DNA from: an uncultured delta proteobacterium
Lineage (GTDB): Bacteria > Desulfobacterota > Binatia > DP-6
Reading direction: 5' to 3'
NCBI GenBank assembly: GCA_963815115.1
Contig: CAWFFN010000008.1
Span: 448,001-512,000, forward strand
DNA length: 64,000 bases
Below, piece by piece: positions 24,355 to 33,158 of the stretch (positions are counted from its first letter, which is position 1; each line of letters begins with the position of its first letter). The translations under genes and the position numbers were made by a program. A model generated the notes under the pieces. That model ran no database searches, had not been told where the DNA came from, and worked only from the letters and a program-made list of their open reading frames with translations.

Positions 24355-24429
24355 AGCCGCCCCGCTAGGTAGACGTACCTGGCAGATTTCCCTTGACGTA
24401 TAGCACCGTCCCTTCTTATGACATCATTC

Positions 24430-25686
24430 ATGCGTACTCGGATGGCCCTGTCATTCGCCGCCGTTCTGATCGCCAGCTCCCCTGCCCTCGCCCACCACAT
24501 CAGCGGTACCGTGTACTGCGATCAGGACCTGGACGGGAAGATCGACGCGGGCGACACGCCGGTCTCCGGGATCGACGTCCACATCACGTCGCAGGTCGCC
24601 CAGCCGGGCCAGCTCTTCACGCAGACGACGGACGGCAGCGGGAGCTACAACATCTCGCTCCCGGCGCGTACCGACACCTATACCGTCGAGCTCGTGGGGA
24701 TCGGCAGCTTCACCATCGTGGTTCCCGCCGCCGGATCCTACTCCGTCCACATCATCACCGGGGACTCGCAGAAGGATCACAAGGACGGCGTGGACTTCCT
24801 GCTCCAGGGGTGCGGGCATCACACCACCACCACCAGTACCACGAGCACGACCAAGAAGAGCACGACGACCACGTCGACCACGGCGAAGTCCACGACCTCG
24901 ACCACCTCGACGACGTCGACGACCACCACCACGACGCCTCCGACCACCGCGCCGGTGTGCCAGTGCCCGGCGCTTCCGTTCCTGGCGGCGCGGGAGGGAA
25001 AGATCAACAACGATGCCAGCGTCAACGCGAGCGTCGGCGTGAACGACGCGGGCGGCAAGCTCCGCCTCGGCAAGGACGTCATCCTGGCAGACGGGACGGT
25101 GATCGCCGCGGACACCGTCCAGATCGGCAACGCGTCGAGCGTCTTCTCGGTGCTGGCGAACACCCTCAACAAGGGATCCGGTGTGGTCGTTCGTGGAACG
25201 ACGGGCACCCCGGCGCTGCCGCTGGTCCAGCCGTTCTGCTCGCTGCCGCCCATCACGTGCGGAACCAGCACCGTCCAGGTGCAGGCGGGTGCCAGCGCCG
25301 GACCGCTGCCACCCGGAACCTACGGCAAGCTCCGGATCCTGAACGGCGGCAACCTGACGCTGGCGCCGGGGACCTTCACCTTCTGTGACGTGAAGCTCGG
25401 CCGCAGCGCGTCGCTCATCACGCTCGGCCCGGCCGTCCTCAACGTCGCGGGCGACGTCGTGATCGGCACGGCGTCGCACTTCGGGCCGGATGCCGGGACG
25501 GCGCCCGTCAGTGTGAACGTCGCCGGCAAGCTCGTTCGCGTGAGCCAGTCGGCGTTCGCCAACGCGGCCTTCGTCGCTCCCAACGCGCGCATCACATTCG
25601 GCCGCGACTCGCATCTGCTGGGCTGCTTCTGCACCGATCGCGAGAAGAGCGACAAGCACATCACGCTGGACTGCCCGTCGCCGTAG
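24430..25686 (+). CDS. Secreted SdrD-B-like domain + Thr linker + beta-solenoid (adhesin-like) protein
   Basis: Signal peptide; ISGTVYCDQDLDG..DAGD.P; TTDGSGSY; LPPGTYG; GTFTF; APNA. Confidence 0.75.
   Translation: MRTRMALSFAAVLIASSPALAHHISGTVYCDQDLDGKIDAGDTPVSGIDVHITSQVAQPGQLFTQTTDGSGSYNISLPARTDTYTVELVGIGSFTIVVPAAGSYSVHIITGDSQKDHKDGVDFLLQGCGHHTTTTSTTSTTKKSTTTTSTTAKSTTSTTSTTSTTTTTTPPTTAPVCQCPALPFLAAREGKINNDASVNASVGVNDAGGKLRLGKDVILADGTVIAADTVQIGNASSVFSVLANTLNKGSGVVVRGTTGTPALPLVQPFCSLPPITCGTSTVQVQAGASAGPLPPGTYGKLRILNGGNLTLAPGTFTFCDVKLGRSASLITLGPAVLNVAGDVVIGTASHFGPDAGTAPVSVNVAGKLVRVSQSAFANAAFVAPNARITFGRDSHLLGCFCTDREKSDKHITLDCPSP
24823..24948 (+). repeat. Thr/Ser/Lys low-complexity linker
   Basis: TTTTSTTSTTKKSTTTTSTTAKSTTSTT... 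Confidence 0.85.
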
Positions 25687-25823
25687 CGGACCACGGCCTG
25701 CGCAGCGCCCTCCCTTCCGGGCCGCGGGTCCCGCGACGGTGCGGGATCATTGCAGGCGTGCATGCCTGGCACGGCTCTGTCTCGCCGTCTCCAGCGGCAC
25801 GAGCTTCGCAAGTGCCGGACCGG

Positions 25824-26990
25824 ATGACCTCTGCCTGCCGCCTCCTCCTCTTTCTCCTCGCGTTCGCAGCCGCGGCGCCGGCGGGCGCCCACCACCGCCA
25901 GACAGACCCCGTCTTGTGGTTCATGACGCCTGGCGACACGTCGCTCCCGCGCGCGAGCGCGCAGGGGACCAAGACGTTCACACTGGCCGTGCAGTCCGGG
26001 ACCGGCCAGCAGGTCATCACCATCAGCCCGTTTCGCGATCCGAATCTGCATGTCCCGGTAGGCCAGGCCGGAAACAACGTCGACCCTGCCATCTCCTTCA
26101 ATGGCAAGCGCGTCGCCTTCGCCACGAGCGACGACCCGCTCCACCTCGGCCTGCCCGGCCGGCAGCTCGTGCTCGCCGCCTCCAACACGCTCATCCCGCT
26201 CTCCCAGGATCCGAGCGGTACCTCGACCAACCCGGTGGTCGACACCGCCGGCCTCCGCATCGCGTTCGAATCCGCGGGCGACCTGGCCGGCACCGGCCAC
26301 CCCGGCATCCTCCAGGTCTACGTGCGGCAGCCGGACGGGTCGGTCACGCAGGCGAGCTCGGGACTCGGGACCAGCCGCAATGCCGTCCTGAGCCCGAAGA
26401 AGCACCGTCTCGCATTCGAGTCGGCGAGCGATCCGACGTCAGGCGCGGACACCGGGATCTCGCAGATCTGGCTCGGCGACCTGATCGACGCCTCGGCGAC
26501 GCGTCTCACCACCGGGCTCGGGTCGAGCCGCAACCCGGCTCTCAGCGACGACGGCGGCCTGCTGGTCTTCGAGAGCACGGCCGACCTCGCCGGCAGCGGA
26601 GCGGATACGGGCGTCAGCCAGATCTTCAGCTACGATCCGAAGAGCCTGACCTTCGCGCAGATCACGAGCGATGCCGGGGGCTGCGCGCTCCCGGGGGTCA
26701 GCAAGGTGAAGCGCGACTGGCGAATCACCTTCGTCTGCAACGGCGAGCCCTACTACTACATGCTGCGTGCCGACCAGCGGTTCCACGTGCAGACCGGCGG
26801 CGGCGTCACGCAGCGGATCCTGGGTGAGATGGGCATCCACTTCCTCATCCTGAGCACGACCGGCAATCTGCTGGCGGGCGGCACCACCCCGGGCAAGCAA
26901 GTCTACATGGTGAACCTGTTCAAGCGTCCCGCCGATCCCGTACCCGGTGTCGCGCACTGGTTCCCCGTGCGGGGCATCCCGCCCCTCTGA
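25824..26990 (+). CDS. Secreted TolB-like (PD40) beta-propeller protein
   Basis: Signal peptide; repeated P-x-x-S/D-x-x-G-x-R-I/V-AFES units. Confidence 0.8.
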   Translation: MTSACRLLLFLLAFAAAAPAGAHHRQTDPVLWFMTPGDTSLPRASAQGTKTFTLAVQSGTGQQVITISPFRDPNLHVPVGQAGNNVDPAISFNGKRVAFATSDDPLHLGLPGRQLVLAASNTLIPLSQDPSGTSTNPVVDTAGLRIAFESAGDLAGTGHPGILQVYVRQPDGSVTQASSGLGTSRNAVLSPKKHRLAFESASDPTSGADTGISQIWLGDLIDASATRLTTGLGSSRNPALSDDGGLLVFESTADLAGSGADTGVSQIFSYDPKSLTFAQITSDAGGCALPGVSKVKRDWRITFVCNGEPYYYMLRADQRFHVQTGGGVTQRILGEMGIHFLILSTTGNLLAGGTTPGKQVYMVNLFKRPADPVPGVAHWFPVRGIPPL

Positions 26991-27141
26991 CCGGGGCGCA
27001 GAGCCGTACCTCACGCGCCGCAGGCCCCTCGAGAAGCGCTCGCGCCGTCGCCTCGGGCTCGGCGACGTAGCGTCGAGCCCGGATCTGGGCGCGGAGACGC
27101 CGGAGCCGCGCGCGCCGTGGGTACCCGTCCGTCAGATCCAT
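26920..27141 (-). CDS. Putative minimal FlgM-like anti-sigma-28 factor
   Basis: RRARLRRLRAQIRARRYVAEPEATARALL resembles the FlgM C-terminal sigma-binding helices; GAGGG SD; sigma-28-type promoter directly upstream. Confidence 0.55.
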   Translation of the reverse strand: MDLTDGYPRRARLRRLRAQIRARRYVAEPEATARALLEGPAAREVRLCAPVRGAGCPARGTSARHRVRDRRDA

Positions 27142-27958
27142 GCACCCTCGTAGGAGCCATCGGCAGTCCGCCGGGCAACCTTGAATGGGTTCTCGCGGGG
27201 CCGGCCTGGGCGCCGAGATGGCCCCGCAGGCGAAGCAGCGCCTGGGTATGGAGCTGCGACACTCGCGACTCCGTCAGCCCGAGCACCGTTCCGATCTCCC
27301 GCATCGTCAGCTCGTCCCGGTAGTAGAGCGACAGCAGGTACTGCTCGCGTTCGGGAAGCTGGCGGATGGCCTCGGTGACGAGGCGAAGGCGCTCCCGGTA
27401 CAGGAGGCTTCGGAGCGGGTCGGCATGGGAGTGATCCGGCGGGAGATCGAGCTCGCCGTTTCCGAATCCGAGATCGTCCAGGTTGAACATCGTGACCGGG
27501 GCAGTCTGCGTCAGCAGGGAGCGATAGGCCGCGAGCGAGAGCCCGAGCTCGGACGCCAGCTCGTCCTCACGCGCGGGACGGCCGAGGACGACCTCGAGGG
27601 CGCGGGCCGCACGTTCGACGGCGGCCGTCTTCTCGCGCACGCTGCGAGGAACCCAGTCGATCTCGCGCAGCTGGTCGAGGATGGCTCCCCGGATGCGGAA
27701 CCGAGCGTACGTCGAGAACAGGGCTTCGCGCCCCTGCTCGTACTTCGCGAGCGCGTCGATGAGCCCGAGCGTCCCCCAGGAGACGAGGTCGTCGAGATCG
27801 GCCGGTGCCGCTACGCGATTCAGCAGCCGGCGCGCGACCCGGCGCACGAGCGGCAGGTAGCGCCGCAGCGTCGCCTCCGGTCCGCGCTCCGAATGAGGGC
27901 GCAGTCCGCCACCCGACGGCTGTCGGCCGACGGGCGCGATGGATACGCGCTCCTGCAT
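27011..27958 (-). CDS. fliA: FliA/WhiG-family sigma-28 factor
   Basis: DDLVSWGTLGLIDA; FSTYARFRIRGAILDQLREIDWVPRS; LTESRVSQLHTQAL; long non-conserved C-terminal tail. Confidence 0.9.
   Translation of the reverse strand: MQERVSIAPVGRQPSGGGLRPHSERGPEATLRRYLPLVRRVARRLLNRVAAPADLDDLVSWGTLGLIDALAKYEQGREALFSTYARFRIRGAILDQLREIDWVPRSVREKTAAVERAARALEVVLGRPAREDELASELGLSLAAYRSLLTQTAPVTMFNLDDLGFGNGELDLPPDHSHADPLRSLLYRERLRLVTEAIRQLPEREQYLLSLYYRDELTMREIGTVLGLTESRVSQLHTQALLRLRGHLGAQAGPARTHSRLPGGLPMAPTRVHGSDGRVPTARAAPASPRPDPGSTLRRRARGDGASASRGACGA
27157..27184 (-). promoter_or_regulatory. Putative sigma-28 promoter for the FlgM-like ORF
   Basis: Minus strand TCAAG-N15-GCCGATGG, ending 15 nt before ATG 27141. 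Confidence 0.6.
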
Positions 27959-28130
27959 GCCGTCTTCCCTCCCCGCGAAGGCCGTTCGGAAAACCGTACC
28001 CGATCCGGCCCCGGGGAGGCGATAAAAATCGCGCATCCAGGCACGGATCATTCGCCCGCGAATGCCGCGCCTGTCGCGATCTCCCGGATCGACTTGGCAA
28101 CCAGATCGACACCTGCCAGGAGGGGGACAC

Positions 28131-29222
28131 GTGAGCGAGGCAGAGGCACACGTCGCCGAGACGGCAAGAGCGCTGGGCTTCCCCCTCGTCGGCTGCACAC
28201 CTCTCGCCCCGCTGCCGCGCGAGGAATTCCTCGACCGCTGGCTGGCCCAGGGCCGCGCGGGGGAGATGCGCTACCTCACCACGCGCACTGCGGAGCGGCT
28301 CGACCCCAGGCGGGGATACTCGTGGGCGCGCGCAATCGTCTGTCTCGCCCATCCGTACCAGCCTCCGCCGCCCCCCGAGGGAGACTGGAGGGAAACCCTG
28401 CGCGGACGGATCGCCGCCTATGCCGTCGGCCGCGACTACCACGAGCGAGTGAAGGCGCTGCTCCGGCGCCTGGTCGACCGTCTGCACGTTCGCTGGCCGG
28501 AGGCGACCTTCCGGCCGTACGTCGATACCGGGCCGTTGCTCGAGCGCGAATGGGCAATGCGGGCTGGACTCGGCTGGATCGGCCGAAACACGCTGCTCCT
28601 ACATCGCGCCGCGGGCTCGTACTTCTTCCTGGCCGAGCTGCTCACCGACCTCCCCCTCGCAGCGGTCCCCATGCCGGCCGATCACTGCGGCACCTGCACG
28701 CGCTGCCTCACCGCCTGTCCCACCGGCGCGCTCGAGAACTACACGATGGACCCACGCCGCTGCCTCGCCTACCTCACCATCGAGCACCGCAGCGCCATCC
28801 CCGTCGCGCTCCGCTCCGCGCTCGACAACTGGGTGTTCGGTTGCGACATCTGCCAGGAGGTCTGTCCCTGGAACCGTGACGCGCGCGCACCCGCCGACGA
28901 GACGCTCGCGCCCCGTCTCCCGGATCTGCTCGCGCTCGACGACGCCGGCTTCCGGGCGCGCTTCGGCGGCACGGCCGTGACCCGCACCAAGCGCCGCGGG
29001 CTGCTGCGCAACGCCGCCGTCGCGCTGGGCAACAGCGGGAACCCGGCTGCCGTCCCGCCGCTGATCGCTGCGCTCGCCGATCACGAGCCGCTGGTGCGCG
29101 GGCACGCCGCCTGGGGACTCGGATGCCTCGGCGGACGCGCGGCACGGACTGCGCTCGAGCGCGCGCGGCGGGTCGAGCCGGATCCGGGCGCGCGCAGCGA
29201 GCTCGACGCCGCGCTCGCCTGA
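28131..29222 (+). CDS. queG: Epoxyqueuosine reductase
   Basis: GRDYH; VDTGPLLERE; CGTCTRCLTACPT; GCDICQEVCPWN; HEAT repeat tail. Confidence 0.95.
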   Translation: MSEAEAHVAETARALGFPLVGCTPLAPLPREEFLDRWLAQGRAGEMRYLTTRTAERLDPRRGYSWARAIVCLAHPYQPPPPPEGDWRETLRGRIAAYAVGRDYHERVKALLRRLVDRLHVRWPEATFRPYVDTGPLLEREWAMRAGLGWIGRNTLLLHRAAGSYFFLAELLTDLPLAAVPMPADHCGTCTRCLTACPTGALENYTMDPRRCLAYLTIEHRSAIPVALRSALDNWVFGCDICQEVCPWNRDARAPADETLAPRLPDLLALDDAGFRARFGGTAVTRTKRRGLLRNAAVALGNSGNPAAVPPLIAALADHEPLVRGHAAWGLGCLGGRAARTALERARRVEPDPGARSELDAALA

Positions 29223-30273: not shown

Positions 30274-30369
30274 CGGGTGGGCGGGAGTATGGACCGGTGC
30301 CCTGCACGTGTCCATCCCTGGTCGCGATCGCGTTGGCACGGCCGGAGCCCTCTGCTAGCGTGCATGCGC

Positions 30370-31809
30370 ATGCAGCCCGCGCGCCCCGATCGATTCGTTC
30401 TCGAGCGGTTCGGCCTGACCGGGCGCGCGCTCGAGAACGTGCTCGGGACAGCGCTCGAGCGCCGCGCCGACTGGGCCGATTGCTACTTCGAGCTCGCCGG
30501 CGTGCAAACGGCATCGCTCGAGGACGGCGTCGTCAAGAAGGCGACACGGAACGTCCGGCAAGGTGTCGGCGTGCGCGTGCTCGCGGGTGCGCGCAGCGGC
30601 TACGCCTACTCGGACGAGATCACCCTCGAGCGTCTCGAGCTGGCAGCGCGCACCGCGCGCGTGATCGCCGATCACGGCGCCGAGACGGCGGCCGTGGCGC
30701 CTGCCCTGCCGTCCCTCCAGCAGCGCGATCTCTATCCCCTCGCGGGATCGCTGCTCGAGACACCGCTGGCCGACCAGGTCGCGCTCCTCACCCGACTCGA
30801 CGCGATCGCTCGCGCCCATGACCCCGCGATCACCAACGTGATGGCGGGGCTCGGTCTCGAGCACCGCGTCGTGCTCGTGGCCGGTCCGGAGGGACTGCTG
30901 GTTGGCGACGTCCGCCCGCTGCTGCGCGTGAGCGTCATGTGCATCGCCGAGCGGGGCGGCCGGCGCACGCAGGGAACGGCGGGCGGGGGCGGACGGTACG
31001 AGTTCTCGGCGCTCCTCGACGGACGGGCCGAGCGCTTCGCCCGCGAGGCGGCACGGCAGGCCATCGTGAACCTCGACGCCGTTCCCGCCCCGGCCGGGAG
31101 CACGACGGTCGTGCTCGGGCCGGGATGGCCGGGCATCCTGCTGCACGAGGCCATCGGGCACGGGCTCGAGGGCGACTTCAACCGCAAGCGCACGTCCGCC
31201 TTCACCGACCGCATCGGCACGCGGGTGGCGTCGGAGCTCTGCACGGTGGTCGACGACGGCACGCTCCCGGGACGCCGGGGCTCACTCAACGTCGACGACG
31301 AGGGCACGCCGACGGGACGCACGATGCTCATCGAGCGGGGCATCCTGCGCGGCTACCTGCAGGACCGGCTCAACGCGGCACTGATGGGCATGCCGCTCAC
31401 CGGCAACGGCCGGCGCGAGAGCTTCGCCCATCTCCCGATGCCCCGCATGACCAACACCTTCATGCTCGCCGGCGAGGACGCGCCCGAGGACATCATCCGC
31501 TCCGTCGACCGCGGGCTGTACGCCGTGTCGTTCGGTGGCGGGCAGGTCGACATCACCTCCGGCAAGTTCGTCTTCTCGGCGAGCGAGGCATATCTCATCG
31601 AGGGCGGCGTCGTCGGGCGCCCGGTACGGGACGCCACGCTCATCGGCAACGGCCCGGACGTCCTCACCCGCATCACGCGCGTCGGCAGCGACCTCGCACT
31701 CGACGAGGGCCTCGGCACCTGCGGCAAGGACGGCCAGTCCGTCCCCGTCGGCGTCGGGCTGCCCACCGTACGCATCGACGGCCTCACCGTCGGCGGGACC
31801 GGCGCGTGA
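30370..31809 (+). CDS. tldD: Metalloprotease TldD
   Basis: PGILLHEAIGHGLEGD; PMPRMTNT; GTCGKDGQSVPVG. Alternative ATG at 30364. Confidence 0.95.
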   Translation: MQPARPDRFVLERFGLTGRALENVLGTALERRADWADCYFELAGVQTASLEDGVVKKATRNVRQGVGVRVLAGARSGYAYSDEITLERLELAARTARVIADHGAETAAVAPALPSLQQRDLYPLAGSLLETPLADQVALLTRLDAIARAHDPAITNVMAGLGLEHRVVLVAGPEGLLVGDVRPLLRVSVMCIAERGGRRTQGTAGGGGRYEFSALLDGRAERFAREAARQAIVNLDAVPAPAGSTTVVLGPGWPGILLHEAIGHGLEGDFNRKRTSAFTDRIGTRVASELCTVVDDGTLPGRRGSLNVDDEGTPTGRTMLIERGILRGYLQDRLNAALMGMPLTGNGRRESFAHLPMPRMTNTFMLAGEDAPEDIIRSVDRGLYAVSFGGGQVDITSGKFVFSASEAYLIEGGVVGRPVRDATLIGNGPDVLTRITRVGSDLALDEGLGTCGKDGQSVPVGVGLPTVRIDGLTVGGTGA

Positions 31810-33158
31810 CCGGCGGCGACCTGCGCGACATCACCGAGCGACTGGTCCGCGATGCGCTGGCGGCGGGGGCACGAGCGGCCGACGCCCTCGCCGGAGAGAG
31901 CGACGGTCTCGAGGTCGGCGTCCGCCTGGGCGCCGTCGAGAAGATCAAGCGGGCGCGCGAGCGGCGCGCCGGGCTGCGGGTCTTCGTGGGCGACTCGACC
32001 GCGGTGGTCTCGACCGCCGACCTCTCGGCCGATGGACTGTCGATCCTGGCGAACGACGCCTGCGCACTCGCCCGCGCAACCGCCGCCGATCGCTTCGCAG
32101 GGCTGCCGGATCCCGCCGATCTGGCGACCGAGCAACCCGACCTCGCGCTCTACGATCCGGCGATCGAAGCGCTCGAGGCCGAGACCGCGCTGCGCATGGC
32201 ACGGCAGGCGGAGGCCGCGGCGTTGGCGGCGGCGCCGGAGATCGACAACTCCGAAGGTGCGGAGTTCGGCGGCGGCGGCGGGCAGGTGGCGTACGCCTCC
32301 AGTCTCGGCTTCTGCGGCGCCTACAGCGGCTCGAGCTTCAGCCTCGCCGTGACGCCGGTGGCGCGGCGCGACGGCGGCATGCAGCGCGACTCCTGGTACA
32401 CGACGAACCGGCGGCTCGACCGCCTGGAGGAGGCGGCGAGCGTCGGCCGCGAGGCCGCACGCCGGGCGCTCCGGCGGCTGGGCGCACGCAGCGTGCCGAC
32501 CACCGAATGTCCGGTGGTGTTCGACCCGCAAACCGCGGCGTCGTTGCTGCGACATCTCGCGGGCGCCATCGCCGGGTCGTCGCTCTACCGGCGCGCATCG
32601 TTCCTCCTCGACCGCCTGGGGGAGCGCATCGCTCCTCCCAGCGTGACCGTGATCGACGATCCGTTGCGCCCGGGGGGCGCGGCGTCACGTCCGTTCGACG
32701 GCGAGGGAGTCGCCTCGCAGCGTCGCACCATCGTCCGTGCGGGCATGCTCGAGAGCTACCTGCTCGACTCGTACTCGGCGCGGCGCCTCGGGCTGCGCCC
32801 GACGGGCCACGCCAGCCGGGCGACCGGCGACGCGCCCGGCGTGGCGCCGAGCAACTTCTACCTCGAGGCCGGGCCGCACCCGCCCGAGGCCATCATCGCC
32901 TCGGTGCCAGCCGGGCTCTACGTGACCGAGCTGATCGGGTTCGGCGTGAACCTGGTGACGGGGGACTACTCGCGCGGGGCAGCCGGACTCTGGATCGAGC
33001 GCGGCGAGCTCACCCATGCCGTCGAGGAGGTGACCATCGCCGGCAACCTGCGCGACATGCTCGCCGGCATCGAGCTGATCGGCAACGATCTGGTGTTCCG
33101 CAACGCCACCTCGGCCCCGACCCTCAAGGTGGCCCGAATGACCGTCGCCGGAACGTGA
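31806..33158 (+). CDS. pmbA: TldE/PmbA
   Basis: GTGA overlap with tldD; PFDGEG; GVNLVTGDYSRGAAG; EVTIAGNL. Confidence 0.95.
   Translation: MTGGDLRDITERLVRDALAAGARAADALAGESDGLEVGVRLGAVEKIKRARERRAGLRVFVGDSTAVVSTADLSADGLSILANDACALARATAADRFAGLPDPADLATEQPDLALYDPAIEALEAETALRMARQAEAAALAAAPEIDNSEGAEFGGGGGQVAYASSLGFCGAYSGSSFSLAVTPVARRDGGMQRDSWYTTNRRLDRLEEAASVGREAARRALRRLGARSVPTTECPVVFDPQTAASLLRHLAGAIAGSSLYRRASFLLDRLGERIAPPSVTVIDDPLRPGGAASRPFDGEGVASQRRTIVRAGMLESYLLDSYSARRLGLRPTGHASRATGDAPGVAPSNFYLEAGPHPPEAIIASVPAGLYVTELIGFGVNLVTGDYSRGAAGLWIERGELTHAVEEVTIAGNLRDMLAGIELIGNDLVFRNATSAPTLKVARMTVAGT

Follow-up and report, generated by a model that had tools for sequence, protein, structure and literature searches.

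Sigma-28 and FlgM in Bacteria without Flagella

The closest described counterpart of the locus reported here is that of Legionella oakridgensis. According to extracts of a review (PMC5655016), it is without the entire flagellar regulon and keeps functional fliA and flgM genes; its flgM is sigma-28-dependent, and its FlgM, which represses the targets of FliA, is not exportable and is apparently degraded. The same extracts, citing Rust et al. (2009), state that the FlgM of Helicobacter pylori is inactivated instead of exported. In Streptomyces, as presented in extracts of another source (PMC12871210), the sigma-28-family factor WhiG serves a non-motility programme in non-flagellated bacteria, and its anti-sigma factor is RsiG, a protein that has no kinship with FlgM and that cyclic di-GMP arms. 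More generally, FliA homologues were matched in 41% of non-motile genomes, according to an extract of a third source (PMC12199754). Here, we describe a fliA gene and a short overlapping open reading frame (ORF), which we term mini-flgM, in a window of 64,000 nucleotides from an uncultured delta proteobacterium of the Binatia (assembly GCA_963815115.1, contig CAWFFN010000008.1, positions 448,001 to 512,000; all coordinates below are those of the window unless a contig is given). The locus is probably the regulatory remnant of a flagellar gene cluster that was lost, in which a functional sigma-28 factor stands beside an N-terminally truncated flgM with its ancestral sigma-28-dependent promoter.

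This bacterium resembles L. oakridgensis, as far as the extracts describe the latter, in that the flagellar genes are gone and fliA and flgM remain; the pattern of regulators that outlive the flagellum therefore occurs in uncultured soil Binatia too. It differs in belonging to another phylum, in having a FlgM cut to about 40 conserved residues and left unannotated, and in carrying flgM directly behind fliA, where it overlaps fliA's extended frame. The proposed output also differs, being a sigma-54 activator here, whereas the extracts on L. oakridgensis list other FliA targets. With the canonical FlgM/sigma-28 pair, the locus shares homologous C-terminal helices, a class-III-type sigma-28 promoter ahead of flgM, and a predicted contact with region 4 of the sigma factor. 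Unlike the canonical FlgM, mini-FlgM has no N-terminal part and no export apparatus to pass through, so there is no hook-completion checkpoint here. The FlgM of H. pylori is N-terminally shortened. To go by the extracts, it is likewise non-exported, yet that bacterium is flagellated. The WhiG/RsiG pair, as far as its source was extracted, is comparable in that a sigma-28 factor is kept without a flagellum and unlike the present pair in that RsiG is not related to FlgM. What is new here is the extreme shortening of FlgM, the overlapping gene that was not called, and the recurrence of the relic locus across the genera of one family, to which a sigma-54 activator may be added as a candidate output.

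A Truncated flgM Overlapping fliA

The fliA gene lies at 27011-27958 on the minus strand (ATG at 27958, stop at 27011-27013) and encodes 315 residues, a product identical to that of the public gene call. The initial annotation, made from the letters of the window, had described a fliA that runs about 60 codons past region 4.2 and that contains, within this tail, a sigma-28-type promoter, a GAGGG ribosome site, and an out-of-frame ORF; all of these were found at the positions given below, and the FliA frame is open for some 65-70 codons beyond region 4. The ORF, mini-flgM, has 73 codons (26920-27141, minus strand, ATG at 27141) in a frame that differs from that of fliA. The two final helices of FlgM have their equivalent in its conserved core, residues 9-38 (27028-27117); residues 39-73 form an unconserved tail, and the last 71 nucleotides of the ORF (26920-26990) overlap the 3' end of a convergent PD40 gene.

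The homology of this ORF to the C-terminal, sigma-binding region of FlgM comes from profile comparisons. Taken alone, the ORF of the window matches the Pfam FlgM family (PF04316) with 12.9 bits (E 0.14, profile positions 26-55 of 55), the cut-off being 25 bits. Its counterparts in the same genus attain 27.1 (G002), 24.5 (G003), and 12.6 bits (G001), and six fliA-adjacent ORFs from outside the genus attain 40, 34.1, 25.0, 39.4, 36.6, and 34.5 bits. When a profile of the five mini-ORFs of the genus was aligned by hhalign with a profile of ten FlgMs from related genomes (the six fliA-adjacent ORFs, at 25.0-40 bits, and four full-length FlgMs, at 35-58.8 bits), the match reached a probability of 96.3% with an E-value of 1.5e-9 along 35 C-terminal columns. 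A combined profile of all 15 sequences found the Protein Data Bank (PDB) entry 9wsf_B, a 'negative regulator of flagellin synthesis', with an E-value of 3.9e-7. By homology, the 73-codon ORF is a truncated FlgM.

In an alignment, the FlgM of flagellated relatives has about 100 residues, in which a conserved N-terminus is followed by one helix in the middle and two at the C-terminal end, and the first 60 or so of these residues are without counterpart in mini-FlgM. The N-terminal export region is thus absent, and mini-FlgM is filed as a truncated, non-exported member of the family, which agrees with the initial description of an anti-sigma factor reduced to its binding helices; the genome has no FlhA either. 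The fliA-adjacent FlgM of non-flagellated genomes outside the genus has 61-87 residues, and in this genus, only the two last helices are kept, with about 40 conserved residues. This length series (about 100 residues, then 61-87, then a core of about 40) may mark the part of FlgM that is sufficient for sigma binding without export.

The core is conserved in all five species of the genus and solely in the flgM frame. Over 29 core codons, the differences among the five genus members at codon positions 1, 2, and 3 number 76, 56, and 155, and amino-acid identity across the core, 62% when read in the flgM frame, drops to 35% for either of the other two frames, one of which is that of the FliA tail. 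These figures indicate that selection acts in the flgM frame and that the FliA tail is without it. The 73-residue ORF and its counterparts in G003 and G002 are absent from the public gene calls, as had been anticipated for an overlapped gene; the 79-residue counterpart in G010 is publicly called and named FlgM. The public genome therefore gains a well-supported, unannotated overlapping gene.

In the sigma factor itself, Pfam recognizes sigma-70 regions 2, 3, and 4, the last of which ends at residue 245, and two curated models place the protein in the FliA/WhiG sigma-28 family (NCBIfam FliA model NF005413, 237.6 bits for a cut-off of 201; FliA/WhiG model TIGR02479, 236.7 bits for a cut-off of 189.6). 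The conserved core extends over residues 25-255 or so, the invariant residues of the family are kept, and the FliA proteins of the other genus members are 53-66% identical to this one.

Beyond this core, residues 256-315 or thereabouts (approximately 27014-27193) form a non-conserved tail that results from the loss of the ancestral stop codon. The FliA of relatives stops 11-25 codons beyond region 4; within the genus, the stop precedes the flgM core in G004, G001, and G003, and the core is read through only in the genome under study (G000) and in G002. The tail is, on this comparison, a lineage-specific stop loss in GC-rich DNA, with no conserved feature and no selection. The nesting of flgM in the FliA tail, which had been proposed at the outset, is therefore real here and in G002, but it is not a conserved design, since other members of the genus stop earlier. 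Soil-metagenome contigs from two runs, covering 27102-27607 (X1, possibly the source sample) and 27070-27220 (X4), match with 0 differences and 0 gaps, so the missing fliA stop is not due to an assembly indel.

The Predicted Promoter of mini-flgM

The predicted sigma-28-type promoter of mini-flgM lies on the minus strand at 27157-27184, with a -35 element TCAAG (27184-27180), a 15-nucleotide spacer, and a -10 element GCCGATGG (27164-27157), and is followed by a Shine-Dalgarno sequence GAGGG (27145-27149, minus strand) four bases ahead of the ATG. All five genus genomes have [TA]CAAG and [GA][CT]CGATG boxes 15 nucleotides apart, and conservation is confined to the boxes, the spacer being variable. 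The -10 box is separated from a purine-rich site and ATG by 16-17 nucleotides in four of the five, purine-rich sites being found at equal distance in G004, G003, and G002; in G001, it is 12 nucleotides from the ATG, and a clear ribosome site is absent. The ORF, promoter, and ribosome site of the initial annotation are thus conserved in relatives.

The sigma-28 promoter consensus is of the TAAA-N15-GCCGATAA type. For this clade, a calibration is provided by the flagellated relatives, in which T[CA]AAG-N15-NCCGA[TC] precedes the full-length flgM of all four flagellated genomes examined and 7 of 10 flagellin-family genes inspected, one with a spacer of 16 nucleotides; the three without the motif are lower-scoring paralogues. 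The flagellin and flgM genes of these relatives are preceded by the form T[CA]AAG-N15-NCCGATA, which makes TCAAG a normal -35 form of the clade. The motif also lies ahead of flgM in G010, G009, G015, and G011 and, in a weaker form, in G030 and G038. The predicted promoter of mini-flgM matches these sites, and linkage to fliA and a putative sigma-28 promoter ahead of the gene, both marks of flgM, are found together here. In the 6.9-Mb genome, TMAAG-N15-RCCGATR occurs five times on both strands, against once for the reversed control, and it is very unlikely that the motif stands directly upstream of mini-flgM by chance.

Motif matches with spacers of 14 nucleotides were seen ahead of a transposase fragment and of a molybdopterin oxidoreductase gene. 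Ahead of fliA itself, a poor CAAG-N15-GCGACAGG was noticed by eye and rejected as a sigma-28 promoter, being unconserved in the genus alignment. A consensus scan detected a single weak terminator-like site and nothing resembling a sigma-70 promoter, and an Rfam search of the fliA locus and of the activator locus described below gave nothing meaningful.

Predicted Binding of mini-FlgM to FliA

A model of the complex was made with FliA residues 20-256 (27-row alignment) and mini-FlgM residues 1-48 (15-row alignment). Its interaction prediction score from aligned errors (ipSAE) was 0.68 (0.69, 0.67, and 0.68 in the individual runs), and the best of three controls gave 0.00. The ipSAE mark used is attained by 58 of 80 solved complexes and by 2 of 110 mismatched pairs, a calibration that is only rough for a model built on custom alignments. 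The partner had a predicted local distance difference test (pLDDT) value of at least 66, and contact agreement was at least 71%. The confident contacts run from mini-FlgM residues 13-39 to FliA residue 160 and residues 187-226, that is, to region 4. The model thus supports a predicted binding of mini-FlgM to region 4 of FliA, in line with the interface that the initial annotation would have led one to expect. The computational checks that this annotation had proposed all turned out in its favour.

Probable Loss of the Flagellar Gene Cluster

The window neighbours of fliA are neither flagellar nor chemotactic, and its gene families (SDR, enoyl-CoA hydratase, an SdrD_B-like protein, a PD40 propeller, QueG, a DHH phosphoesterase, TldD/PmbA, and BioB around fliA) bear out the initial impression of an orphan sigma gene. 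The genome (6.9 Mb in 12 contigs, rated 100% complete) gives no match to FHIPEP (FlhA), flagellin_N, Flg_bb_rod, or CheW, so that the check for flagellar genes called for at the outset found none; its only MotA-family matches are ExbB/TolQ-like, and it has one rpoN.

Among the 41 genomes searched, this one included, a FliA homologue (E of at most 1e-20) is found in 29 and in 23 of the 24 other family members. FHIPEP and rod genes occur together in 16 of the 41, in 14 of the 24 family members, and in none of the five members of this genus. The 900 nucleotides past region 4.2 were translated at 29 fliA loci, and 11 of them have a FlgM-like ORF downstream of fliA (G000-G004, G009, G010, G011, G015, G030, and G038); all 11 genomes are without a FHIPEP or rod match, G010 being only 58% complete. 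The remaining 18 loci comprise 16 from flagellated genomes, one in G022 that is about 465 nucleotides from the contig end, and a second fliA copy in G038. In each of the five flagellated genomes tested, fliA is followed on its own strand, at a distance of 5.3-5.5 kb, by an flgM that is significant in Pfam (34-59 bits), and rod genes occupy the interval. Since the flagellated relatives hold rod genes between the two, the adjacency of fliA and flgM in non-flagellated genomes is attributed to a deletion of the intervening genes, and the locus is best read as a putative deletion relic of a flagellar gene cluster.

In a quick FliA tree, flagellated and non-flagellated rows are interspersed, and the starred branches force at least three changes, though such a tree is no basis for the number of independent flagellar losses.

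The flagellated relatives L004-L007, L009-L015, L017, L020, and L021 have a conserved ORF of about 60-70 residues directly 3' of fliA, which ends in GR[LI]D[VIL][VFIT]A and is not FlgM-like; a predicted membrane protein is encoded next, and this pair separates fliA from the rod genes.

A Sigma-54 Activator as a Candidate Target

The initial annotation had pictured fliA and mini-flgM as a self-contained switch, which is probably not the case, given that elsewhere in the genome, a sigma-54 activator gene has a conserved sigma-28-type promoter as well. The site (G000:C8:394823-394849) is outside the window, about 80 kb away from fliA, in the interval that separates the activator gene (G000:C8:394940-395971) from a divergent gene for RNase PH (rph). 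The activator has 343 residues with AAA+ and HTH_8 domains only, attains no equivalog cut-off in NCBIfam, and shows 70-79% identity within the family; in 29 of 30 loci, the divergent gene beside it is that of RNase PH.

The site is found in all four genus genomes that have the gene, G001 and G003 having similar sites at the syntenic position. By regular expression, a sigma-28-type site stands ahead of the activator in 21 of 23 family loci and in 1 of 7 loci of other families; of the two family loci missed, the one in G023 is cut short, and that in G010 has a TTAAC variant seen in the alignment. The boxes read TCAAGC...ACCGAT in this genus and TCAACCATT...RCCGATATAG in other genera, and the spacer varies in both. 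When sites in the genome were ranked with a position weight matrix built from 40 sites, both sites of this genome among them, the activator site came first with 25.3 bits, and the flgM site scored 17.6 bits; all other matches of at least 17 bits lie in predicted coding sequence (by crude gene calls) with no gene start within 300 nucleotides. At the motif level, we infer that the activator gene is under sigma-28 control in family members with and without flagella. This would explain the retention of fliA and flgM, and the predicted promoter of the activator offers a concrete, testable reason for their survival after flagellar loss.

Several other features of this gene and its kin may be mentioned. 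A strongly conserved 5'-leader block, GCGCATAGCAYG, lies 3' of the activator's promoter, is common across the family, and has no Rfam match. A second sigma-54 activator paralogue, 56-60% identical, is present in the flagellar cluster of flagellated relatives and, in the non-flagellated loci G009:C225, G011:C96, and G015:C210, within about 2 kb of fliA-flgM; some lineages have thus kept three regulators, fliA, flgM, and this paralogue. Just past the rdgB-rph pair, outside the window (G000:C8:386888-393046), there are insertion-sequence-like ORFs and a phage-type integrase, names that were given from translation starts alone.

A Proposed Circuit and Its Alternatives

If the locus is a functional relic, free FliA would transcribe mini-flgM, and mini-FlgM would bind region 4 of the sigma factor by its two remaining helices and block it, which would close a negative feedback loop. 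With both the flagellar export apparatus and the N-terminal part of FlgM missing, release would have to occur by turnover or dilution, most likely by proteolysis, as proposed for L. oakridgensis. The likely output would be the sigma-54 activator gene, the one other gene of the genome with a conserved sigma-28-type promoter. More tentatively, these parts could make up a minimal three-part circuit, in which an anti-sigma factor of about 40 residues acts on region 4, its release is free of secretion, and the main output is a sensor-less sigma-54 activator; this is a possibility on which we would not insist. If true, it would mean that several lineages dropped the flagellum but retained fliA and flgM for the sake of the activator, which depends on them.

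A number of observations weigh against a functional FlgM of this kind. The score of the window ORF by itself is below the Pfam threshold, and the ORF has no match in NCBIfam; in the PDB, the profile of the five mini-ORFs missed FlgM and matched FrmR best (E 0.0037), an outcome that we ascribe to the chance similarity of an arginine-rich helix. Where 9 of the 10 related-genome FlgMs have the glycine of the G-x-Y motif, the window ORF has an arginine. No RNA run was found to contain the locus. The roughness of the ipSAE calibration has been mentioned, and the model may have passed through memory of the solved structure, a sigma-28/FlgM complex reportedly having been solved by Sorenson and colleagues in 2004. 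Likewise, the ranking of the two sites may profit from their inclusion in the matrix. Counts of the motif by spacer, genome-wide and in intergenic DNA (the latter as delimited by a crude home-made gene caller), show no enrichment of the N15 spacing, so no larger regulon can be read from the motif alone. Finally, the mini-ORF of G004 is without a nearby stop, the fliA of G001 is split over two frames with a break near residue 150, which may be a real frameshift or an assembly indel, and the FliA branches of this genus are long, all of which is compatible with decay.

Decay would mean that, after flagellar loss, fliA and a stub of flgM are becoming pseudogenes and that the mini-ORF is no longer an anti-sigma factor. 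The low Pfam score, the loss of the N-terminal two thirds of FlgM, and the want of a sizeable detectable regulon fit this, as do the lost fliA stop in G000 and G002, the G001 frameshift, and the long branches. However, the core has been kept in five species despite FliA identities of only 53-66% and with an excess of third-position substitutions, the promoter, ribosome site, and ATG are conserved, FliA has kept the residues that are invariant in its family and passes the cut-off of the FliA model, the complex model predicts a confident interface, and the break in G001 is perhaps an assembly indel. Decay is, for these reasons, an unlikely explanation. A third view, in which mini-FlgM mainly stabilizes FliA against proteolysis and so sets its level instead of gating its activity, draws on the predicted contact being with region 4 only and on Barembruch and Hengge, who in 2007, by their title, reportedly described 'FlgM-modulated proteolysis' of the Escherichia coli FliA. 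Nothing here separates stabilization from inhibition, and in factors of the sigma-70 family, binding to region 4 would in itself block -35 recognition; we regard a mainly stabilizing role as quite improbable. It is harder still to believe that the ORF is a product of chance in DNA of 71% GC and that what is conserved is really the FliA tail, the convergent gene, or a FliA-FlgM fusion masked by a sequencing frameshift. Long spurious ORFs are indeed abundant in the window, and the FliA frame is open across the region; but the FliA stop lies upstream of the core in three of the five genus members, identity in the flgM frame exceeds that in each other frame, the core lies upstream of the PD40 stop, and the ATG and ribosome site are conserved. 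The metagenome contigs, with 0 indels, speak against chance and fusion alike and, together with the frame identities, are grounds to reject a frameshift or fusion.

Neighbouring Genes

The fliA-mini-flgM locus is flanked by a convergent PD40 beta-propeller gene (25758-26990, plus strand; start at 25812 according to the crude caller) and by a divergent queG gene for epoxyqueuosine reductase (28062-29222, plus strand; likely start a GTG at 28131). About 2.4 kb past the fliA start, beyond queG and the DHH gene, a TldD/PmbA metallopeptidase pair is encoded (30364-33158, plus strand); it was considered as a protease for FlgM, and no evidence in support was found. On the other side, at 24418-25686 on the plus strand, lies the gene for a protein that looks secreted and combines an SdrD_B-like domain with a long linker rich in Thr and Ser.

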